NCBI GenBank assembly: GCA_035761265.1
Contig: DASTRL010000250.1
Location: forward strand, 4,166 to 68,165
From: Steroidobacteraceae bacterium
Lineage (GTDB): Bacteria > Pseudomonadota > Gammaproteobacteria > Steroidobacterales > Steroidobacteraceae
Length of the DNA stretch: 64,000 nucleotides
Reading direction: 5' to 3'
A program made the translations under genes and the position numbers. A model generated the notes under the pieces. That model was not told the origin of the DNA, did not search any database, and was given only the letters and a program-made list of their open reading frames with translations. Shown here piece after piece: positions 37,091 to 49,665 of the stretch; within the stretch, counting starts at the first letter, position 1, and every line of letters begins with the position of its first letter.

Positions 37091-37353
37091 GGCTTCGGCG
37101 GGTTGCGCTTGTCTTTGTCGTTCGTCCCGGGTGCGACGACTTCGGGGGCGGGCGAGGCCGGGCCTTCCGGCGCATCGACGGTCCGTGGCGAATTCGGCGC
37201 ATCACCCGGCTGCGGCGCCGGCGGCGTCTGCGTCGGGCGCGTGACGATTTCGCGGGCTTCGCCCGGTAGATAGAGCGCGCCTTTCTGCCCGCAACCGGCG
37301 AGCGCCAGCGCGACGAGCAGCGCCAGCGTGACACTTGCGGCCGGCCGGTTCAC
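37087..37353 (-). CDS. lptM: LPS-assembly lipoprotein LptM (YifL family)
   Basis: 88 aa from GTG 37353: MNRPAASVTLALLVALALAGCGQKGALYLPGE, with a lipobox plus the GCGxKGxLYLP signature, then a Pro-rich tail. Only the last 88 codons of track ORF 37087-38811 are used. GTGA overlap with the thioesterase stop and ATGA overlap with the polA start. Confidence 0.8.
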   Translation of the reverse strand: MNRPAASVTLALLVALALAGCGQKGALYLPGEAREIVTRPTQTPPAPQPGDAPNSPRTVDAPEGPASPAPEVVAPGTNDKDKRNPPKP

Positions 37354-37814
37354 TTCCACGAGGTCTTGTCCTCCGCGCTCGTACGCCATTCCACCACGGC
37401 CACGGTCAGACGCGATATGCACACCAGTCGTTCCCGCGAATCGCGGATTTCGATGCTCCAGACCTGGCTGCGGGCGCCGAGATGAAAGGGACGCGCCGTG
37501 CCGGTGACCACACCCTCCGACACGGGGCGCAGATGGTTGGCGTTGATTTCCTGCCCGAGGCAGCGCTGGCGCGAGTGATCGACCACGTAGTTCGCGGCCA
37601 CGCTGCCCAGGGTTTCGGCCAGCACCAGCGAGGCGCCGCCGTGCAGGTAGCCCATGGGCTGCTGCGTGTGCGCGGCCACGGGCATGGTGCCGCGCAGGTA
37701 GTCGGGACCGAACTCGGTGAACTCGATGCCGAGGTACGGCGCGAGCAGGCCCGCCTGGCTGGCGCGCGCATCTTCGATGGACGGATTGTCGGCGAACCAG
37801 ATGGCCATCTTCAC
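37350..37814 (-). CDS. PaaI/YigI-type hotdog-fold thioesterase
   Basis: 154 aa with the block GYLHGGASLVLAETLGS characteristic of PaaI-family thioesterases. Confidence 0.88.
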   Translation of the reverse strand: MKMAIWFADNPSIEDARASQAGLLAPYLGIEFTEFGPDYLRGTMPVAAHTQQPMGYLHGGASLVLAETLGSVAANYVVDHSRQRCLGQEINANHLRPVSEGVVTGTARPFHLGARSQVWSIEIRDSRERLVCISRLTVAVVEWRTSAEDKTSWK

Positions 37815-39037: not shown

Positions 39038-39967
39038 CTATTTACCGCTCTGCTGTTCGGCGGGGGAGAGTGCGTTCACGTCGGCCACGATCAGCGTGCC
39101 GGCACCCTCGTTGGTGAACACCTCGGCAAGGATGCCCTCGGGCGACTTGTACGACATCACGTGCACGCGACGCACGCCACCACGGATCGCATCCTCGATG
39201 GCCTTGGCCTTGGGCAGCATGCCGTCGACGATCTTCTTCTCCTCGCGCAGCCGCCTGAGGCCATTGAGGTCGGTGTAGGAAATGATGGAGCTCGGGTCGT
39301 CGATGCGCTCGAGAATGCCCGGTGCGCCGGTGCACAGCATGAGCTTCTCGGCCGACAAGGCCGCGCCGATCGCGGCCGCCACGGTGTCGCCGTTGATGTT
39401 GAGCAGGGTGCCGGTATCGTCGGCGGACAGCGGGCTCACCACCGGCATCAGGCCGTTGTCGAGCAGCTTCTGCAGGACCATGATGTCCACGCCGTCGATG
39501 TCGCCGACGAAACCATAGTCCACGGTTTCGCCGTCGACCTTCACCGGTGGGCGCTTGTGCGCGCGGATCAGGCCGGCGTCGACGCCCGAGATGCCCACCG
39601 CGTCGATGTTCATCTCGCGGCACAGGGCCAGCAATTTCGTGTTGATGAGGCCGTTGAGCACCATCGAGGTGGCGTCGATCGCCTTCTGGTCGGTGACGCG
39701 TCGCCCCTGGACCATGCGCGTCGGCACGCCGAGCGCCTCGGTGACCTCCGTGAGCTGCGGACCACCGCCGTGCACGAATACGACGCGCACGCCGAAGTAA
39801 TGCAGGATCGCGATCTGCTCGATGAGCCCGCGCACCGCCGCGGCGTCGGCGAATACGCCGCCGCCCGCCTTCACCACGAAGGTCTTGCCCTTGTACATGC
39901 GGATGTAGGGCGCCGCGGAACGCAGGCTGCGGATGGCGGCGGTGGGATCGGGGCGATGCATGATCAT
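39038..39967 (-). CDS. argB: acetylglutamate (N-acylglutamate) kinase
   Basis: 309 aa with an amino-acid kinase fold (VVKAGGG, VFVHGGGPQ, LNINGD). Confidence 0.93.
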   Translation of the reverse strand: MIMHRPDPTAAIRSLRSAAPYIRMYKGKTFVVKAGGGVFADAAAVRGLIEQIAILHYFGVRVVFVHGGGPQLTEVTEALGVPTRMVQGRRVTDQKAIDATSMVLNGLINTKLLALCREMNIDAVGISGVDAGLIRAHKRPPVKVDGETVDYGFVGDIDGVDIMVLQKLLDNGLMPVVSPLSADDTGTLLNINGDTVAAAIGAALSAEKLMLCTGAPGILERIDDPSSIISYTDLNGLRRLREEKKIVDGMLPKAKAIEDAIRGGVRRVHVMSYKSPEGILAEVFTNEGAGTLIVADVNALSPAEQQSGK

Positions 39968-39991: not shown

Positions 39992-40999
39992 TCAGTGTTG
40001 CGGTGAGGAGAGCAGGCGATGCAGTACCGCGGTCTGCACCACCATGCGGTTGTAGGCTTCGCGCTGCACGACGCTGCGGCGGCCGTCGAGCACCTCGTCG
40101 GCGACCGCGACATTACGCCGCACCGGCAGGCAGTGCATGAGTTTGCAGTCGACCGCGGCGCGCGAGAACCAGGTGTCGCGCACGCACCAGTCGGCGAGTT
40201 GCGCGCGCGCGCGGGCGTCCGCGTCCGCATTGCCGTAGTGCGTGGTCGAGCCCCATTCCTTGGCGTAGATGACGTGCGCACCGTTCATGGCATCCTCGCG
40301 ATCCGAGGTCTCGCGCAGTGATCCACCCGAGGCGGTCGCGGCCGCAGCAGCCTTCTGCATGATGGCCGGCGGCAGCGCGAAGCCCTCGGGCCGCAACACC
40401 ACCACCTCCATGCCGCGCATCGCGGCCATGTGCACGGTGGCGGCGGGCACGGCGAGCGGCAGCGCGCGCGGATGATTCACCCACGACAGCACGAAGCGCG
40501 CTTTGCGCGGCACCGCGAGATCGTCGAGCGTCTTCCAGTCGGCCAGCGCCTGACAGGGATGATTGGCGGCCGACTCCATGTTGATGACGGGTTTGCTGAC
40601 GAGACCCACCATCTCCTTGAAGGAGGTCTCATTGAGATCGGAGTCGAGATCGATGCCGCCGGCGAACGCGCGAATGCCCAAAGCATCGCAATAGTGGGAC
40701 AGTACCGGGACTCCCTCGCGCACATGTTCCGCTGGCGCTCCATTCATGACGGCTCCGCGTCTGGTCTCGAGCTGCCAGGTGCCATTGCCGGCAGAGACCA
40801 CGAAGGAGTTTCCGCCGAGCCGCGCCATGGCCGCCTGGAACGAGGCGAGCGTGCGCAGCGAGGGATTGAAGAAGAGCAATCCCAGGATTTTCCCCGCCAG
40901 TGCCTGCGGCTCCGGATGAGTCTGCAGGCGTTCGGCGAGCTGCAGCAGCTCGACCACCTGCTCGCGCGAAAGGTCCGCCAGATCGAGGAAGTTCTTCAT
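39992..40999 (-). CDS. argF: N-acyl-L-ornithine carbamoyltransferase (ArgF', AOTCase/SOTCase branch)
   Basis: FFNPSLRT carbamoyl-phosphate motif, WQLETRRGAVMNGAPAEH block and HCLPVRRN. Closest by eye to the Bacteroides N-succinylornithine enzyme pattern. 4-nt overlap with argD. Confidence 0.88.
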   Translation of the reverse strand: MKNFLDLADLSREQVVELLQLAERLQTHPEPQALAGKILGLLFFNPSLRTLASFQAAMARLGGNSFVVSAGNGTWQLETRRGAVMNGAPAEHVREGVPVLSHYCDALGIRAFAGGIDLDSDLNETSFKEMVGLVSKPVINMESAANHPCQALADWKTLDDLAVPRKARFVLSWVNHPRALPLAVPAATVHMAAMRGMEVVVLRPEGFALPPAIMQKAAAAATASGGSLRETSDREDAMNGAHVIYAKEWGSTTHYGNADADARARAQLADWCVRDTWFSRAAVDCKLMHCLPVRRNVAVADEVLDGRRSVVQREAYNRMVVQTAVLHRLLSSPQH

Positions 41000-42168
41000 G
41001 CAATGTCCGCCAGCGCATCGCGCAGCCGGTCGATGTGTTCTTCCTTGAGGATGAAGGCTGGCAACAGGCGCAGGATGGCTGGATCGGCCGCCGTGCCGGT
41101 CAGGATGTCCCTGGCCAGCAGCGCCTTCTGCACATCCTTGGCGGGCCTGCCGAGGCGCAGGCCGTGCAGGAATCCCAGGCCCTGGAAGTCGACCACCGGG
41201 CCGACCTTGCAGGTCCTGCGCAGGTAGTCCGATACGCGCGCCACGTTCTCGAGCAGGCCCTCCTGCTCGATGGCATCGATGGTGGCCTCGGCCACGGCAC
41301 AGGCCATGGGTCCGCCGCCGAACGTGGTGCCGAGGTTCTCCGGCCTGAGCGACGCCGTGATCGGCGGCGTGAGCAGCAGCGCCGAGACCGGGAAGCCGTT
41401 GCCGAGCGCCTTGGCCGTGGTGATCATGTCCGGCGTCACGCCGTAGTAGTTAGCCGCGAACGGCGTGCCGGAGCGGCCCACGCCGCACTGGACTTCGTCG
41501 AAGATCAGCAGGGCGCCCGTCTCATCGCAGCGCCTGCGCAGCGCAGCCAGGAACTCCTGGCCCATGTCGAACGCGCCACCCACGCCTTGCACCGGCTCGA
41601 CGATGACGGCGGCGGTGTTCCCGGTGACGTGATTGGCGATGTCCGCCACGTCGCGGCGCCGGATCCAGCTCACGTCGAATGGCGCGCGCGGCAGGAAGAA
41701 CCACTTCTGCGGTGCGCCCCAGGTGGCGGAGGCGCAGGCAGCGGTGCGCCCGTGGAAGCTCTGCTCCACCGCCGCCACGTGAGTGCGACCGGGACGCATC
41801 TTGAACGCCAGCTTGAACGCGTTCTCGTTGGCTTCGGCGCCGGAGTTGATCCAGAACACGCTGTCGAAGGGCAGCTTCGAGAATTTCAGCAGTTTTCGCG
41901 CCGCGCGCGCGCGGACTTCCATGGGGACCGCGTTGGTCTGGAAGTTCATCTTCGCGGCCTGGTCGGCCAGCGCCTTCGTCCAGCCCTTGTGGCCGTAGCC
42001 CAGCGACGCCACGGCGTGACCGCCGTAGAGGTCCAGCACCTTGCGGCCATCGCGCGTGTGCAGCCACACACCCTCGGCGGCCACCACTTCGATCGGGTAT
42101 TGCGCGTACACCGGCGCCAGGCCGTCGACGGGCGAGGCGGGCGCTTTCAATTCTGCGTTCATGGTCAC
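40996..42168 (-). CDS. argD: acetyl/succinyl-ornithine aminotransferase (class III PLP aminotransferase)
   Basis: 390 aa with class III aminotransferase blocks (FWINSGAEANE, IFDEVQCGVGRSG, TTAKALGNGFP with the PLP Lys). Confidence 0.92.
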   Translation of the reverse strand: MTMNAELKAPASPVDGLAPVYAQYPIEVVAAEGVWLHTRDGRKVLDLYGGHAVASLGYGHKGWTKALADQAAKMNFQTNAVPMEVRARAARKLLKFSKLPFDSVFWINSGAEANENAFKLAFKMRPGRTHVAAVEQSFHGRTAACASATWGAPQKWFFLPRAPFDVSWIRRRDVADIANHVTGNTAAVIVEPVQGVGGAFDMGQEFLAALRRRCDETGALLIFDEVQCGVGRSGTPFAANYYGVTPDMITTAKALGNGFPVSALLLTPPITASLRPENLGTTFGGGPMACAVAEATIDAIEQEGLLENVARVSDYLRRTCKVGPVVDFQGLGFLHGLRLGRPAKDVQKALLARDILTGTAADPAILRLLPAFILKEEHIDRLRDALADIA

Positions 42169-42172
42169 GGTC

Positions 42173-43234
42173 TCACGTCCAACCGGCGGCGGGAGCCAGC
42201 AGGCCCGTGGTTTCCGGCAGATCGAACAGCCGGTTCATCCACTGCACGGCGCCGCCGGCCGCACCTTTGTTGAGGTTGTCGACCACGCTCATCACCGCGA
42301 TGGTCCTGCCGTTGGCCGTGGCCGACAGGTGCGCGTAGTTGCTGGCCACGATGTCTTTCACCCGCGGCGCGCCGTCGAGCACGCGCACGAAGGGCGCGCC
42401 GGCGTAGTACTCGCGCAGCAGACTCACGGCGGCCGCGGCGTCGCGCGGGCTCTTGAGCCGCGCCTGTACCGTCGCGTGAATGCCGCGCGCGAAAGGTCCG
42501 GAGTGCGGCACGAAAGCGAACTCGGCCTCGATCCCGGTGGTCGCCTTCGCGAGCGCCGTGATCTCCGGCGTATGCCGATGTCCCAGTGCGCCATAGGAAT
42601 ACAGGTCACTGTGGCGCGTGGGATGGTGCGTACCTTCCACCGGCTTGCGTCCCGAACCCGTGCTGCCGGTGACGCCACTGACGAACAAGTTGGGTTCGAC
42701 CCAGCCCGAGGCGAGCAACGGCACGCTCGCCAGGAGAATGGCGGTCGAGAAACATCCCGGATGACCCACGTGCGGCGTGCTCACTTTCTTAAGGTGCTCC
42801 GGCACGGCGCAGGTGAACTGCGCGAGTCGCGCCGGGGCGCCGTGCGGATGCTTGTAGACGGCCTCGTAAGCCGCCGCGGTGGCGAAGCGGAAATCGGCCG
42901 AGATGTCCACGAAACGCGGCCGGGTGCCAGCGCTCTCCGCGCCCTTGAGCAGCGAGTCGATCAGCGCGGCGGCTGCGCCGTGCGGGGCGGCGCAGAACAC
43001 CGCACTGGTCGGCTCGCTGGCGATCAGCGCCGCGACGTCCGCCTGCGATTTGAAGGCGATGTTGCCCAGCACCGCGGCGAGGTGCGGAAAGGATTTGCCC
43101 ACGAGCTCGCCGGGCGCGCTGTCCGACATGACGCCGGCGAGCGCGAAATTCGGGTGTCCGGTGAGCAGCCGCAGCAACTCGCCGGACACGTAGCCGGTGC
43201 CGCCCAGCACGATGGCGGGAATCTGTTTGCTCAT
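42173..43234 (-). CDS. argC: N-acyl-gamma-glutamyl-phosphate reductase
   Basis: 353 aa from ATG 43234. N-terminal LGGTGYVSGELLRLL NAD motif and active-site Cys in GHPGCFST. Confidence 0.92.
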   Translation of the reverse strand: MSKQIPAIVLGGTGYVSGELLRLLTGHPNFALAGVMSDSAPGELVGKSFPHLAAVLGNIAFKSQADVAALIASEPTSAVFCAAPHGAAAALIDSLLKGAESAGTRPRFVDISADFRFATAAAYEAVYKHPHGAPARLAQFTCAVPEHLKKVSTPHVGHPGCFSTAILLASVPLLASGWVEPNLFVSGVTGSTGSGRKPVEGTHHPTRHSDLYSYGALGHRHTPEITALAKATTGIEAEFAFVPHSGPFARGIHATVQARLKSPRDAAAAVSLLREYYAGAPFVRVLDGAPRVKDIVASNYAHLSATANGRTIAVMSVVDNLNKGAAGGAVQWMNRLFDLPETTGLLAPAAGWT

Positions 43235-43244
43235 GTGCTTCGCG

Positions 43245-44330
43245 TCACTCGTTCGCCGCGCGATCCATGGCGCGGGCCTGCGTGAGTCCCACGGACTGGA
43301 TGATGGAATCGCCCAGAGCCGCGCCGGCGGACAGCGCATTGAATGCGGGTACCTTGAGCTGCTCCTGGATGATCTGCACACCCACGGCGTTGTCCGTCGA
43401 CGGACCGGTGACCGCGATGGGCTCGATGCCGTACTTCTGGCGCAGGATGTCCACGCCGCCGTAGGCCGCCACCGGATCGTTGGCGGAGAGCACCACGCCG
43501 GTCATGGCCTTGCGCAGGTCCTGCTGCTCGAGGATGGCATCGACTCCGTAGGTTCCGAGCAATCCGTCGCCGAGCTCGAACACGATGACGTCGGGCTTCT
43601 TGTCGGCAAGCTCGGTGAGCATGGTGCGCGTGAGCGCCGGGCCCACCTTGCGCGTGGTCGAGACAATGCCGAAGTCCGTGAAGATGAGCGTGTTGCGCGC
43701 GCCGGCGTCCTCGAAGGCGAGGATGTCACGACGCAGCGAGACGCCCGTGGCCTTGAAGGCATCGACGACCAGCCCGCGGTGCCGCATGCGCGCGATGATG
43801 GCCGCCGCCGCTGCGGTCTTGCCGGCTTCCATGCAGGTGCCCGCGAGCGCGACCACGGGCACGCGCTGGGTGTCGAGCTTGGCTTCCGGGTCGAACTTGC
43901 GATAGCCGACACGCGCCGGTACGCCGATGCGTTCGCCGAGGTACGGAAAATCCAGCACGCCGCCGATCACGCGGCAGTCGAAGGGCTTGCCCTTGTCGGG
44001 ATTCACCGAGTCGCACACGCCGAGCACGCCGCCGATGTTGAGCATCTGCAGGACGTCGCCGGGCTTGACGCTGCCGGGCACGTGGCCCGAATAGCCGAAC
44101 AGCGCCTTGCGGTGCCCCAGCGCACCGGCAACGATGTCGCCCTTGCCCACCTTGGCCATGCGGCCGCTGGTGAGCTCCAGCGTGTTGTAGGTCGATTTGT
44201 TGGTCAGGATTTCCACGACCACCACCACGCCTTCCTCGGCGGGAATGTTGTCGGTGGCGACGCGCACCTCGTTGCCGAGACCGCAGGCCTGCGTGACCGA
44301 CGCGATCTTGTCGACGACTACCGTTCTCAT
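43245..44330 (-). CDS. uncharacterised two-domain protein with deviant Walker A (GT-x4-GKT), embedded in arg operon
   Basis: 361 aa from ATG 44330 (ATGA overlap with the argG stop). A beta-rich N-terminal half is followed by VVALAGTCMEAGKT and an alpha/beta C-terminal half. Composition and operon context favour this strand over the antisense track ORF 43197-44348. Confidence 0.8.
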   Translation of the reverse strand: MRTVVVDKIASVTQACGLGNEVRVATDNIPAEEGVVVVVEILTNKSTYNTLELTSGRMAKVGKGDIVAGALGHRKALFGYSGHVPGSVKPGDVLQMLNIGGVLGVCDSVNPDKGKPFDCRVIGGVLDFPYLGERIGVPARVGYRKFDPEAKLDTQRVPVVALAGTCMEAGKTAAAAAIIARMRHRGLVVDAFKATGVSLRRDILAFEDAGARNTLIFTDFGIVSTTRKVGPALTRTMLTELADKKPDVIVFELGDGLLGTYGVDAILEQQDLRKAMTGVVLSANDPVAAYGGVDILRQKYGIEPIAVTGPSTDNAVGVQIIQEQLKVPAFNALSAGAALGDSIIQSVGLTQARAMDRAANE

Positions 44331-45556
44331 TTGGCCGTACTCATCTGATTTCCTCCCGCCCGCGCATGGAACATGCCGGTGAGCGAGACGATCTTGGAGA
44401 ACCCGAGCGCATCCTGCGGCGACCACTCGCCCGCTGCCTCGCCGTACACGCCGCGCGACACCGCCATCAGCGAATGCGGCGACTCCACGCCCTCGACGAA
44501 CAAACTACCCGGGCGGAACAGCAGGTGGACCTTGCCCGTGACGCGCTCCTGCGATGACAGGAACAAGGCCTCGATGTCGCGGCACACCGGATCCAGCAAC
44601 TGTCCCTCGTGTACCCAGTCGCCATAGGGCCCCGCGAGCGATTCCTTGATGCGCTGCTGGCGTGGCGTGAGAACGAGCTTCTCGAGCTCGCGGTGCGCGG
44701 TGAGCAGCGTCTCGGCCGCCGGCGCCTCGAACGCGACGCGTCCCTTGGTGCCGATGATGGTGTCGCCGAGATGGATGCCGCGGCCGATGCCGAACGGCGC
44801 GCCCAGCGCCTCGAGCTGCTCGACCACGTCCACGGCGGACATCGTCCTGCCGTCGATGCCGACCGGGCGGCCTTTCTCGAAATGAATCGTGTGCTTGGCC
44901 GGCGCGCGCGGATTCGTGAAGGCGTCCTTCGACAGCACCCAGGCGTGATCGGGAATGCTGCCCTCCGAGGTCAGCGTCTCCTTGCCACCGATGGTCACGC
45001 CCCACAGGCCGCGATTGATTGAATACGCGGCGCCGAACGGCGGCACGGGCAGCTGGCGCGACTGCAGGTAGTCGAGCTCTTCCTGGCGCTTGAACGCCTT
45101 GTCGCGCACCGGCGCGATCACCTCGAGCTCGGGCGCGAGCGTGCGCAGCGCGACTTCGAAGCGCACCTGGTCGTTGCCGGCGGCCGTGCAGCCGTGCGCG
45201 ATGGAGTTCGTGCCGAGCTTGCGCGCCATCAGCGCGATGGTCTGCGCCTGCATGACGCGCTCGGCGCCGACGCACAGCGGGTAGAGCTGGCCGCGGCGCA
45301 CGTTGCCCATCACCAGGAAGCGCAGCACCTGCTCGAAATAGTCGGCGCGCGCGTCCACCTGGTGGTGCTGCACCGCGCCGAGCGCCAGCGCGCGCTCGCG
45401 CAGCGTCTTTGCACCCGCGGCGTCGATGCCGCCGGTGTCGACGGTCACGGTGATGATGGGGCGGCCATAGGTCTCCTTGAGCCAGGGCACCAGGAAGGAG
45501 GTGTCGAGGCCGCCGGAGTAGGCGAGGACGATGGGTGTTTTCTCGGCTGGGGACAT
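44327..45556 (-). CDS. argG: argininosuccinate synthase
   Basis: 409 aa with the N-terminal AYSGGLDTS ATP-PPase motif and full-length ArgG similarity. Confidence 0.96.
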   Translation of the reverse strand: MSPAEKTPIVLAYSGGLDTSFLVPWLKETYGRPIITVTVDTGGIDAAGAKTLRERALALGAVQHHQVDARADYFEQVLRFLVMGNVRRGQLYPLCVGAERVMQAQTIALMARKLGTNSIAHGCTAAGNDQVRFEVALRTLAPELEVIAPVRDKAFKRQEELDYLQSRQLPVPPFGAAYSINRGLWGVTIGGKETLTSEGSIPDHAWVLSKDAFTNPRAPAKHTIHFEKGRPVGIDGRTMSAVDVVEQLEALGAPFGIGRGIHLGDTIIGTKGRVAFEAPAAETLLTAHRELEKLVLTPRQQRIKESLAGPYGDWVHEGQLLDPVCRDIEALFLSSQERVTGKVHLLFRPGSLFVEGVESPHSLMAVSRGVYGEAAGEWSPQDALGFSKIVSLTGMFHARAGGNQMSTAK

Positions 45557-45562
45557 TTTTAT

Positions 45563-46021
45563 TCAGACTCCAAAAGCTTCGCGCAGCAGCGTGAGCACCC
45601 GCGCCTGGGCGCGCGCGTCCGCCGTGGCAATGAACATGGTGTCGTCGCCCGACACCGTGCCGACCACGTCGTCCCAGCCCGCCTTGTCGATGGCCGCCGC
45701 CACGCTCTGCGCGGCGCCGATCGTGGTCTTCAGCACGGTGATGGACGGCCCGGCGGTGCGGATCTCGCGCACGAACTGCGCGACGGTTCCGAAGTTGTCC
45801 TGGGTGCGCGCGGCGATTTCCGCGCTGTCCGGCAGCACGTAGCCCTCGGCGTGCTTGAGCACGCCGAGTTCGCGCAGGTCGCGGCTGATCGAGGACTGCG
45901 TCGCCGCGTGGCCCTCGCGCCGCAACAGCCGCACCAGCTCCTGCTGGCGGCGCACGGGTGAATGCCGCAGCAGGCGCACGATGGCGGTACGGCGCGCTTC
46001 GCGGTGATGGTCTGTGAGCAT
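45563..46021 (-). CDS. argR: arginine repressor ArgR
   Basis: 152 aa from ATG 46021 with a winged-helix N-terminus (QQELVRLLRREGHAATQSSISRDLRELG) and a C-terminal oligomerisation/arginine-binding domain (GTVSGDDT). Confidence 0.9.
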   Translation of the reverse strand: MLTDHHREARRTAIVRLLRHSPVRRQQELVRLLRREGHAATQSSISRDLRELGVLKHAEGYVLPDSAEIAARTQDNFGTVAQFVREIRTAGPSITVLKTTIGAAQSVAAAIDKAGWDDVVGTVSGDDTMFIATADARAQARVLTLLREAFGV

Positions 46022-46480: not shown

Positions 46481-47617
46481 ATGCTTCGTGTTGTGCGCGC
46501 CGGTTTCGTGATCCCGACTCTGCTGCTGGCACTGAGCTTCGGTGAGAGCGCGTTCGCGCAGGTCGGTGAGCCTGCCGGATCCGCTGCTTCGGCCGAAGAT
46601 GCGGTCGCCAGGCACGTGTTCCCGTATCTCGCGCCGGCCAACGTGCCCAGGTTCCCGCGCCCGCCACGTCGCTACACGCCGCCGGACGGATTCGCCGGCC
46701 ACAAATGGGGCGACCTCCGTTCCACGTTTACCCGGCTTCCCGAGCAGCCGGCCGCCGTCCGCGCCGCCTGGACTCACGGCAAGCGGGTCGGAAACGAAGT
46801 GGTTTGCACCGGCCGGGACGTGCAGGCATGCACGGTCCAGGATTACCTCAACTCACAGCGCACCTGGCTGTTCGAGGGTGACGGCTTCCATGTGCTTTCG
46901 GAGTACTTGATCGAATCGCAGGGCTTCCGATTCCCGCAGAGCGGTGTGCTGCTTCATCCGGTGGTGTACGAGTTTTGCGCCAACTGGCACGGGAAGAGGA
47001 ACAGGGTCCCGGAAAAATTCGAGAAGATGAACCGGCTCTGCGGCATGCGCCTGTTGTTCGAGACCGAAAGTCTCGGGGAACTGCGCAAGCTGCCCGAGGA
47101 CCACGTTACCCAATACGACCTGGTGTTGTCCGAGCTCACCTCCCTGTATGGCAAGCCGGCGAATTTCACCTGGCGCGGCCACGTGACGGTGGAAACCGTC
47201 GCAGGTCCTGCGGTGTTCATGCCCAGCGTGGACCGAAAGTTCAAGACCTGGCGCTGGTGTCCGGCGCCTCCCGACGGGCTCATGACCCGTTGCGAAGCCA
47301 GCATCGTGCTGTCGATCGATCCCGACGTCGGTCGAGGCATCGTGCTGTTCTCGACACCGGCGATGTGGCAGTACGCGTTCGCCCGCGAAAGCAGCGAGGA
47401 TGCGGCGCCCGATGCGCTGTACACGTTGATGCACGCGCTTTCCTTCAAACATCGCTATGCCCTGGCGAAGCGCAAGGAAGCGGCCTGGAAGGCGGCCGAG
47501 GCGAAAAAGGCGAAGCGCGAGAAAGCCGAAGAACCGGGCTTGCCCGATGCCAAGTCTGCCGAAGCACCTGGCCAATCGAACTCCGTTTCAACCAGCAAGC
47601 AGGGGTCGATGCCGTGA
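46481..47617 (+). CDS. secreted Cys-rich protein, paralog 1 of tandem triplet (unknown family)
   Basis: It has a signal peptide. It shares blocks with the next two genes: Y-PP-GF-GH-WGDLR, FHVLSEY, HPVVYEFCANW, LCGMRLLF, TWRWCP, C-ASIVLS-DP. Lys/Ala/Glu-rich tail. Confidence 0.85.
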   Translation: MLRVVRAGFVIPTLLLALSFGESAFAQVGEPAGSAASAEDAVARHVFPYLAPANVPRFPRPPRRYTPPDGFAGHKWGDLRSTFTRLPEQPAAVRAAWTHGKRVGNEVVCTGRDVQACTVQDYLNSQRTWLFEGDGFHVLSEYLIESQGFRFPQSGVLLHPVVYEFCANWHGKRNRVPEKFEKMNRLCGMRLLFETESLGELRKLPEDHVTQYDLVLSELTSLYGKPANFTWRGHVTVETVAGPAVFMPSVDRKFKTWRWCPAPPDGLMTRCEASIVLSIDPDVGRGIVLFSTPAMWQYAFARESSEDAAPDALYTLMHALSFKHRYALAKRKEAAWKAAEAKKAKREKAEEPGLPDAKSAEAPGQSNSVSTSKQGSMP

Positions 47618-48771
47618 GAGTTCCGGTTTGCTTGTTGTGCGCGGCTGCTGTCGCAGGTGGGTCACCGCTGGTCCAGGGGCAGAGTGCACCGGCGGCCGAT
47701 GCCACGACGGCGCCCCCGGCCATTGCGGCGGAAGCGGTGCAATACCTGCCGCCTGCCGCGGCGCCCAGGCTCTCGCCGCCGCCAGCAAACTACTCGCCGC
47801 CCGTCGGCTTCGGTGGCCATGCCTGGGGCGACCTGCGCAAGGACTTCCAACAGCTGCCTGCTGAGGCCGCGAGCGTCACGGCCGCCTGGTCGCGCAGCGA
47901 AAAGGGCACGTCGGGTCTGCACTGCACGGGCAGCGGCAGGGCGGTGGTCTCCATCCCGCTGGACGCAGGTCCGATCGGCAGCGCCATCGGCGGCGGCGCG
48001 GCCAATGGTGTCGCCGGATGCAGCATGGCCGACGTCGCCAACAGCATGCGGCCGACGCTCGCGACTGCCGACTTCCACGTGCTTTCCGAATACAGCATCG
48101 CCGGGCAGGGTTTCCGCATGTCAGGCGTCGTGCTTTTCCCGGTGGTCTACGAGTTCTGTGCCCGATGGGAAAAGGGCAAAAGTGAGGTCCCGGCGAATTT
48201 CGAAGAGATCAACCGGTATTGCGGCATGCGCCTGCTATTCCCGATGGAATCACCTTCACAGTTGGCGAGCCTGCCGCCGGATCACGTCTCGCGTTTCGAT
48301 CTCGTGCTGAACGAGCTCGTGTCGCGCTACGGCAATCCTGACGATGCGGTCAGGGGCGGGCGGGACTCCGTGATCGAGGCCGTGACGCCGGGCGTGCCAC
48401 GTCGCGATCGCGATTTGCGCACCTGGCGTTGGTGTCCGATGTCGGCCCGGAAGAAGCAGCCTTCCTGCCCGGTCAGCATCGTGCTCGCCGCGGACCCCAA
48501 CGCGGCGCGCGGCATCGTGATCTTCGCGACGCCCGCGTTGTGGCGTTTCGCCGAAGCGCGCGAGACTGGTCTCGGCATGCCCGATGCGCTCTACACCTTG
48601 TTGCAGGGACTGCCGATCCCGGAACGCGAGGAGCAACGACAGCTCAAGCTCGCGGAAGCGAGCGCGGAGCAGGTCCGTGCGGCGGCGGCGGAGGCCAGTC
48701 GCAAGAGGCCCACGAAGACGGAGGTCAGCACGCCCAGGACCGTCTACGATATCGCGATCAACGAAGAGTGA
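47614..48771 (+). CDS. secreted Cys-rich protein, paralog 2 of tandem triplet
   Basis: The GTG start overlaps the paralog 1 stop (GTGA). Same conserved blocks, with a Gly/Ala-rich insertion in the N-terminal third. Confidence 0.82.
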   Translation: MRVPVCLLCAAAVAGGSPLVQGQSAPAADATTAPPAIAAEAVQYLPPAAAPRLSPPPANYSPPVGFGGHAWGDLRKDFQQLPAEAASVTAAWSRSEKGTSGLHCTGSGRAVVSIPLDAGPIGSAIGGGAANGVAGCSMADVANSMRPTLATADFHVLSEYSIAGQGFRMSGVVLFPVVYEFCARWEKGKSEVPANFEEINRYCGMRLLFPMESPSQLASLPPDHVSRFDLVLNELVSRYGNPDDAVRGGRDSVIEAVTPGVPRRDRDLRTWRWCPMSARKKQPSCPVSIVLAADPNAARGIVIFATPALWRFAEARETGLGMPDALYTLLQGLPIPEREEQRQLKLAEASAEQVRAAAAEASRKRPTKTEVSTPRTVYDIAINEE

Positions 48772-48792
48772 GACCGCCGTACCGTGCGCACG

Positions 48793-49665
48793 ATGAGACG
48801 TTACCTGATTTGTCTGATGCTCACCCTCACCGTCGCGAATGCTTCCGACGGGGGCAAGGGCGTGAAATACGTGCCACCCGAGGGATTCGCGGGTCACAAG
48901 TGGGGCGACCTGCGCGGCAGTTTCGACCGCCTTCCCGAGCAGCCGATCGGCGTCGCGGCAGCCTGGATGCAGCAGCAGCAGAAACAGACCTCGTTCTCCT
49001 GCGTGCCCAACACGCAGGTGGGCGCGCAGGTCAGCGGCGCCATCGACGGCTGCAATTTCCAGGAGACGCTGCTGAGGCTGCGCAGCGAATTCCAGGGCGG
49101 CGGCACCTATGTGTTGTCCGAGTACGCCATCGAGGGCCAGGCGTTCCGCTTCGGCGACGAAGCCAGCGGCATCGTGCTGCATCCGGTGGTCTACCAGTTC
49201 TGCGCGAACTGGAATGGCAGCCGCAAGCGCGGCGCCCCGCTGAACTTCGATGAGCTCAACAAGTTCTGCGGCGTGAAATTCATGTTCCAGAGCGAGACGC
49301 GCCAGCAGCTGCGCAAACTACCCGCGGATCACGAGACCACCTATGACCGCGTGCTCGAAAAGCTGCTCGCGAAATATGGTCGCCCGAAGGGCTTCCTGCG
49401 CCGCGGCCAGGTGATCATCGAGACGCTCGAGGGCGACTCGAGCGATCCGGCCGATCGCAAGTTCAGCATCTGGCGCTGGTGTCCGGCCACCGGCACCGGA
49501 CTGCGCACCGACTGCACCGCCAGCGTGATCCTGACCCTGGACCCGGCGACCGGCGTGGGCACGGTGCTGTACTCGACGCCGCTGCTGTGGGAGTACGCGT
49601 TCGCGCGCGAGAACTACGGGTTCAAGGGTGACCCGCTGTTCCGCATGCTGCATGCGCGGAACTGA
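48793..49665 (+). CDS. secreted Cys-rich protein, paralog 3 of tandem triplet
   Basis: ATG 48793 (or GTG 48784). Signal peptide MRRYLICLMLTLTVANA, the same conserved blocks and no charged tail. Confidence 0.85.
   Translation: MRRYLICLMLTLTVANASDGGKGVKYVPPEGFAGHKWGDLRGSFDRLPEQPIGVAAAWMQQQQKQTSFSCVPNTQVGAQVSGAIDGCNFQETLLRLRSEFQGGGTYVLSEYAIEGQAFRFGDEASGIVLHPVVYQFCANWNGSRKRGAPLNFDELNKFCGVKFMFQSETRQQLRKLPADHETTYDRVLEKLLAKYGRPKGFLRRGQVIIETLEGDSSDPADRKFSIWRWCPATGTGLRTDCTASVILTLDPATGVGTVLYSTPLLWEYAFARENYGFKGDPLFRMLHARN

Follow-up and report, generated by a model that had tools for sequence, protein, structure and literature searches.

Among described enzymes, those closest in proposed reaction and pathway position to the protein considered here are classical ArgA, the bifunctional ArgA/B of Xanthomonas and the GNAT-type N-succinylglutamate synthase of Bacteroidetes. 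The closest described gene cluster is the arginine cluster of Steroidobacter denitrificans DSM 18526, an organism that grows in minimal medium and has no ArgA homolog, and whose hypothetical cluster protein (ACG33_RS14135) was predicted to be ArgA in the GapMind 2026 preprint (bioRxiv 10.1101/2024.10.14.618325, 2 July 2026 version), the one work on this protein family that a full-text search found. The preprint places the protein only as a predicted ArgA, without experiment; it reports that its homologs are virtually always found in arg operons, that they never co-occur with ArgA homologs, that some of them adjoin argE candidates, and that the protein has a weak Foldseek match to DgcN (PDB 7XRJ; with a root-mean-square deviation of 5.6 Å and E 1.4e-7). 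Here we describe a gene that we call X, lying between argG and argC in a 64,000-nucleotide stretch of the Steroidobacteraceae bacterium assembly GCA_035761265.1 (contig DASTRL010000250.1, positions 4,166 to 68,165, hereafter the window). From its sequence and context we consider it fairly probable that its product catalyses the committed first step of arginine synthesis by an N-succinylated route, the conversion of L-glutamate to N-succinyl-L-glutamate.

X and ACG33_RS14135 have much in common: they come from the same bacterial family, each is the sole hypothetical gene of its arg cluster, the ArgF' succinyl-specificity signature is present in both clusters and the same function is proposed for both. 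We take the two, indirectly, to be orthologs on account of their taxonomy, their context and the fact that Steroidobacteraceae homologs are 74-95% identical to X. The proposal that X is an N-acylglutamate synthase is already in print as a prediction, and the window gene is one more member of the family. What differs is the basis offered for the chemistry, which in the preprint is the weak DgcN match and here is the finding that among solved structures the dethiobiotin synthetases are the nearest relatives, together with a fusion of X to an amino-acid kinase (AAK) domain.

X is a real, highly conserved gene, because its GC content at third codon positions (GC3) is 0.84 and a sequence search at E<=1e-3 returned more than 6,500 homologs, each bearing the name 'hypothetical', and 1,446 clusters at 50% identity were found. 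Its protein is identical to GenBank HEU4592552.1, a 'hypothetical protein' from a Steroidobacteraceae metagenome-assembled genome (MAG). The open reading frame (ORF) had been described as 361 codons with an ATG overlapping the argG stop and a 10-nt gap to argC, and its coordinates and the junction letters agree: the argG-X junction reads GCCAAATGAGAACG, with ATGA at 44327-44330 in which the ATG of X overlaps the TGA of argG, and the X-argC junction reads TGA-CGCGAAGCAC-ATG. A longer, GTG-started reading of 393 amino acids was disfavoured because homologs have 355-361 amino acids and their alignment to X begins at residue 1. The gene is translationally coupled within the series argR-argG-X-argC-argD-argF'-argB-argH.

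The original prediction, made from the letters alone, saw in X the strongest nearby candidate for an acyl-cycle step that was missing, with N-acylglutamate formation as the first option, and the genomic context, the clusters of distant homologs, the AAK fusion and the preprint, which came to its proposal independently, all agree with it. The content that it gave for the operon is borne out by matches to Pfam and NCBIfam models (Table 1), and so is its statement that the operon holds nothing resembling ArgA, ArgJ or ArgE: GNAT/ArgA, ArgJ and M20/ArgE models gave no match among the operon ORFs, and when the remaining high-GC3 ORFs of the window were read by eye in translation, none of the three enzymes was seen. 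We regard an ArgA-like role as the most probable reading because X keeps its arg context across divergent arrangements, because the operon offers no other candidate, because of the AAK fusion, because of the reported anti-correlation with ArgA, and because a set of invariant residues of X (S11, R74, K171, T172, K193, E252 and D285) looks catalytic.

The neighborhoods of homologs were viewed within +/-10 kb. At all 80 loci recovered from related genomes the gene order is that of the window as far as the contigs reach; the homologs encoded there share 74-95% identity with X, and the label of most of them is Steroidobacteraceae or unclassified Gammaproteobacteria/Pseudomonadota MAG. More distant homologs occur in other arrangements, namely argG-X-argF'-argH (36% identity), argG-X-argC (40%) and argR-X-argC-argD-argF'-argB (43%), and another has the last of these early-gene operons, there accompanied by divergent argG and argH genes. 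An ArgF'-type transcarbamylase is the constant partner of X, including in the arg clusters of the 36-43% identical homologs. Three further distant representatives (P0263, P0201 and P0156) are on contigs of less than 2 kb and had no informative context.

In a search with family representatives, one protein (P0210, 626 amino acids) was found to carry an AA_kinase domain after its X region. The full ORF of this X::AAK fusion, as read on the one contig L081 (7860-9878), encodes 673 amino acids with a complete X at the N-terminus and AAK at the C-terminus, and the best match of its C-terminal part is the argB model TIGR00761 (127 bits), with a further match to the kinase-like domain of N-acetylglutamate synthases. 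We think that the fusion is not an assembly artefact, because the called protein is present on four contigs, of which the three displayed (L081, L082 and L083) come from three different Joint Genome Institute (JGI) samples. Aligned to E. coli ArgB, the fused domain has KIAD for KxGG and AVAS for NxN, and it might lack catalytic activity, like its counterpart in classical ArgA. X::AAK resembles classical ArgA and the Xanthomonas ArgA/B, where a kinase-like domain is joined to a GNAT domain, although relative to classical ArgA the order of the domains is reversed and X itself has no GNAT domain and an unrelated catalytic fold. A divergently transcribed arginase gene adjoins the fusion. Apparent X-ArgC fusions are likely to be assembly or frameshift artefacts: P0186 was rejected for its low-complexity, frameshift-like sequence, and P0284 was rejected because its contig is named '4x' and a similar long contig (L092) has ArgR and ArgG fused and ArgC fragmented. 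A further fusion of early arginine-pathway domains, amino-acid kinase with ArgJ (PF00696 plus PF01960), was seen in P0288 and P0289, both of about 700 amino acids.

“Which acyl group would X transfer?” DgcN, the precedent named in the original prediction, would point to acetyl, but succinyl is more probable given the alanine found in ArgF'. In an alignment with the Xanthomonas N-acetylornithine enzyme, Ala90 of the window ArgF' (codon 40730-40732) stands opposite E92, exactly as in the crystallised E92A mutant of that enzyme, and alanine occupies this position at all 65 loci that cover it, distant ones included. The preprint cites Shi et al. 2007 for the finding that the enzyme becomes specific for N-succinylornithine when E92 is replaced by A, P, S or V, and itself reports one of these four residues at position 92 in 90% of the ArgF' proteins neighboring X homologs (bioRxiv 10.1101/2024.10.14.618325). 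Because of this alanine the pathway around X is probably succinylated rather than acetylated. The ArgF' of the window is named N-acetylornithine carbamoyltransferase by NCBIfam (NF003384, 343 bits), a name that is probably imprecise in that Ala90 predicts N-succinylornithine as the substrate.

AlphaFold2, run with an alignment (A1) in which 44 homologs share 29-78% identity with X, gave a two-domain model with a predicted local distance difference test score (pLDDT) of 96.3 and a predicted template modelling score (pTM) of 0.92. The first domain, which had been noted as a beta-rich part (~1-165) with no recognisable motif, is indeed all-beta in the model over residues 1-~152, with 12 strands and one short helix, and has no Pfam match; modelled alone it reached a pLDDT of 94.4, and Foldseek found no structural relative for it in the PDB (best E 0.66, template modelling (TM) score about 0.2). 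Residues ~153-361 form a P-loop alpha/beta domain, in which the sequence VVALA precedes the Walker A motif. The residues invariant in A1 are S11, G34, R74, P85, G101 and G123 in the N-terminal domain, where E52 is near-invariant, and G170, K171, T172, K193, G196, G210, G221, E252, G254, D285 and G309 in the C-terminal one. In place of the NKxD-type guanine motif the family has [CS]AxD, which lacks the lysine of that motif.

Profile searches placed X in no characterised family of Pfam or NCBIfam above threshold: X alone matched no Pfam family at E<=0.01, its only NCBIfam match was a sub-threshold one to MobB (16 bits), and a sequence search of the PDB found no match. When each of the 44 members of A1 was scanned separately with Pfam and NCBIfam down to E<=10, all family matches were sub-threshold and confined to the P-loop region. 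These were to MobB (29 members with Pfam, 33 with NCBIfam), DUF1611_C (28), CbiA (27), CobB (14), BioD (11), AAA_26 (10) and CobQ (6-9), and the same scans gave no match to GNAT (PF00583), ArgJ (PF01960) or M20 domains. The assignment of the Walker A motif to the dethiobiotin-synthetase/CobQ/DUF1611 group had been part of the original prediction; the sub-threshold BioD, CbiA, AAA_26, DUF1611_C and MobB matches point the same way, but no model of the family rises above threshold, the BioD/CobQ-CobB models TIGR00347, PF13500 and PF01656 included.

Structure and profile comparisons agree on dethiobiotin synthetase, which is both the best fold match of X and its best match among PDB sequences. In the Foldseek search of the X model against the PDB the C-terminal domain alone was matched, first by the dethiobiotin synthetases 1dae and 1dts (E about 2e-6; TM 0.55-0.58 on the target) and next by the signal recognition particle (SRP) GTPases FtsY and Ffh and by HypB; the DUF1611 structure 2obn came at rank 20 (E 2.5e-5, TM 0.39), and DgcN (7XRJ) was not among the best 50 matches listed. 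The A1 profile likewise found dethiobiotin synthetase 3fgn first (E 1.5e-4) and no DUF1611 structure at E<=10. The alignment to 3fgn pairs the GT-x4-GKT loops and places K193 of X on the conserved BioD lysine after strand 2, which we take to be Lys37 of the 'KP' motif in E. coli numbering. X thus has in common with dethiobiotin synthetase the GTxxxxGKT loop, the lysine after strand 2 and an acidic Walker B of the form E-x-G-x-G, and differs from it in a sequence identity of about 14% and in the extra 150-residue N-terminal domain.

DgcN, a member of the DUF1611 family (PF07755 plus PF17396), has a P-loop C-terminal domain and a two-domain architecture of similar length to that of X. The N-terminal domain of DUF1611 has a Rossmann-like fold, whereas that of X is all-beta and without structural relative; Pfam gave no match of PF17396 to X, and PF07755 matched residues 153-196 only, scoring 15.6 bits (E 0.011) where the cutoff is 25. 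As a precedent, DgcN keeps the chemistry plausible, although the link that had been drawn to it is not specific, since in fold and in profile X is no closer to DgcN/DUF1611 than to dethiobiotin synthetase. The two reactions would also differ, with L-glutamate and a succinyl group predicted for X as against D-glutamate and an acetyl group for DgcN. The preprint cites Yu et al. 2023 for the finding that DgcN is a D-glutamate N-acetyltransferase, which acylates the alpha-amino group of glutamate (bioRxiv 10.1101/2024.10.14.618325).

If X replaces GNAT-type ArgA, its C-terminal P-loop domain would bind a phosphate-bearing co-substrate and its N-terminal beta domain, through S11, E52 and R74, would provide most of the site for the dicarboxylic amino acid; the N-succinylglutamate formed would pass to ArgB, ArgC and ArgD and then to the succinyl-specific ArgF'. 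What would the acyl donor be? By analogy with DgcN, which is a real P-loop precedent for the acylation of glutamate from an acyl-coenzyme A (CoA), it may be succinyl-CoA. The other possibility, about as likely and slightly favored by the conserved residues, though in itself less likely than not, is that X is a CoA-independent, ATP-dependent succinate:L-glutamate ligase, which would be a new enzymatic route into arginine biosynthesis. Dethiobiotin synthetase, CobB, CobQ, CTP synthase and adenylosuccinate synthetase have the same type of P-loop, and in these enzymes an oxyanion is phosphorylated and then attacked by an amine; in dethiobiotin synthetase and the related ATP-dependent C-N ligases CobB/CbiA and CobQ the group phosphorylated is a carboxylate or carbamate. 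Such chemistry applied to succinate and glutamate would give N-succinylglutamate directly. The dethiobiotin-synthetase-like domain would phosphorylate succinate to succinyl phosphate, and the acyl phosphate would be attacked by the amine of a glutamate held in the N-terminal beta domain, a fold without solved relative. X retains the Walker A lysine and threonine, K193 followed by a conserved Thr/Ser-Gly, the E-x-G-x-G Walker B and more conserved acidic residues, which would be unnecessary for merely holding CoA. Counting against the ATP-dependent route is a near-invariant methionine in the X family at the position of what we take to be Thr11 of BioD, a contact of the gamma-phosphate, in a positional comparison with the E. 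coli BioD P-loop. This route would parallel the ATP-dependent N-protection by ArgX/LysX, although on a different fold and with a free dicarboxylate.

Several observations weigh against the proposal that X makes N-succinylglutamate. The full-text literature search found no published biochemical or genetic test of the family. Similarity of X to DgcN/DUF1611 is sub-threshold and no better than to BioD, MobB, CobB and the SRP GTPases, and therefore the description 'homolog of a glutamate N-acyltransferase' carries little weight. S. denitrificans is without ArgE as well as ArgA (bioRxiv 10.1101/2024.10.14.618325), so the logic of gap filling alone leaves unsaid which of the two gaps X fills. On contigs L088 and L089 X sits among late genes only (argG, argF' and argH), a setting that would suit an ArgE-like step equally well. 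Finally, the function of the family is not exclusively linked to arginine, because homologs occur in three Aspergillus species, and fungi have the canonical arginine enzymes. These sporadic fungal members are from Aspergillus avenaceus, A. pseudonomiae and A. alliaceus; the A. avenaceus copy (P0261; L086 8001-9056, ML742132.1) is 31% identical to X and lies among typical fungal genes beside a citrate-synthase-family gene, a setting that speaks for horizontal transfer and for a function outside arginine synthesis.

An ArgE-like role, in which X would remove the succinyl group from N-succinylcitrulline to supply ArgG with citrulline, takes up the absence of ArgE from S. denitrificans and fits the position of X directly after argG in the window and on contigs L088 and L090, its place between argG and argF', amid late-pathway genes only, on L088 and L089, and its constant company of an ArgF'-type transcarbamylase, whose product needs deacylation. 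We nevertheless consider it improbable. Amide hydrolysis needs no nucleotide and has no known precedent in the dethiobiotin-synthetase/SIMIBI P-loop folds, yet the Walker A motif, K193 and E252 are all invariant; X has as its fusion partner a domain of the ArgB type, from an early step; and on contigs L093 and L094 X is in an early-gene operon with argG and argH absent or divergent. The argE candidates beside some X homologs and the anti-correlation with ArgA (bioRxiv 10.1101/2024.10.14.618325) also speak against it.

It is similarly unlikely that X is an accessory or regulatory nucleotide-binding protein, a MobB-, HypB- or SRP-like NTPase acting as a chaperone or effector-sensing partner of ArgB or ArgG, even if its commonest sub-threshold matches are to MobB, an adaptor protein, many of its Foldseek matches are regulatory GTPases (FtsY, Ffh and HypB) and the fused AAK domain, having no KxGG loop, may itself be regulatory. 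With [CS]AxD in its place, the family has no NKxD-type guanine motif with lysine, and the invariant polar residues S11 and R74 of the N-terminal domain are as expected for a small-molecule site. Such a role would also leave two enzymatic gaps in the pathway unexplained and is at odds with a presence that is anti-correlated with that of ArgA (bioRxiv 10.1101/2024.10.14.618325). Slightly less probable still is an ArgJ-like transferase that would pass succinyl to glutamate from either N-succinylcitrulline or N-succinylornithine, filling both the ArgA and the ArgE gap, since, for all that both steps are missing in S. denitrificans, that X has two conserved domains and that it adjoins early genes in some lineages and late genes in others, transacylation needs no NTP or CoA site while the P-loop is invariant, X has no similarity to ArgJ/Ntn folds, some X clusters reportedly have an argE candidate of their own (bioRxiv 10.1101/2024.10.14.618325) and a de novo source of acyl groups would still be required.

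Table 1. The arg operon of the window and the features of X (positions in the window).
Feature	Position	Strand	Basis or remark
argR, arginine repressor, first in cluster	45563..46021	-	Pfam/NCBIfam
argG, argininosuccinate synthase; stop overlaps X start	44327..45556	-	Pfam/NCBIfam
X	43245..44330	-	361 codons + stop; between argG and argC
X N-terminal domain, residues 1-152, all-beta	43875..44330	-	model, alignment
X C-terminal P-loop domain, residues 153-361, dethiobiotin-synthetase/SIMIBI-like	43248..43874	-	model, Foldseek, profiles
Walker A GTCMEAGKT, residues 164-172; G170, K171, T172 invariant	43815..43841	-	alignment A1
Invariant K193	43752..43754	-	alignment A1; profile alignment onto dethiobiotin synthetase
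Walker-B-like strand DVIVFELGDG, residues 247-256; E252, G254 invariant	43563..43592	-	alignment A1
argC; starts 10 nt past X stop	42173..43234	-	Pfam/NCBIfam
argD, acetylornithine/succinylornithine-family transaminase	40996..42168	-	Pfam/NCBIfam
argF', N-acylornithine carbamoyltransferase	39992..40999	-	NCBIfam
argB, N-acylglutamate kinase, 309 amino acids, kinase domain only, no GNAT domain	39038..39967	-	Pfam/NCBIfam
argH, argininosuccinate lyase, short, 394 amino acids	37848..39032	-	Pfam/NCBIfam

Some other features of the locus deserve mention. The TIGR00838 match of the short ArgH covers model positions 11-388 of 455, with ~60 C-terminal residues missing; the ArgH matches of related Steroidobacteraceae loci are equally short, and those of the distant loci L094 and L088 have 467-514 amino acids. 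Starting 39 nt past the argH stop is a gene for a 4HBT/PaaI-type hotdog thioesterase (37350-37808, minus strand; PF03061, E 4e-17), a homolog of which follows argH at 39 of 57 related loci, mostly directly and in five cases 0.85-3.7 kb downstream; its place at the end of the arg operon might indicate a link to the acyl-CoA chemistry of the pathway. Between the arg operon and polA there is a small lipoprotein gene with the LptM conserved region (PF13627; 37087-37389, minus strand), and since the start of this ORF as drawn overlaps the end of the thioesterase ORF, its true start is probably further downstream. On the other side of the operon lie three tandem plus-strand ORFs, apparently paralogs (46481-47617, about 47700-48771 and 48784-49665), with hydrophobic, signal-peptide-like N-termini and the common motifs HPVVYEFCANW and WRWCP; two of the three were searched against Pfam and gave no match.

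Arginine biosynthesis has its committed and regulated step in the formation of N-acylglutamate. In Steroidobacteraceae and the other lineages that have X and an ArgF'-type transcarbamylase, which have no known enzyme for this step, automated annotation leaves an unexplained gap in the arginine pathway, as the preprint reports for a strain able to grow in minimal medium. If X is indeed the N-succinylglutamate-forming enzyme, a function would be given to more than 6,500 sequences now called 'hypothetical', X would be the second type of non-GNAT enzyme that N-acylates glutamate, after DgcN, and the missing desuccinylase would become the next clearly defined gap.

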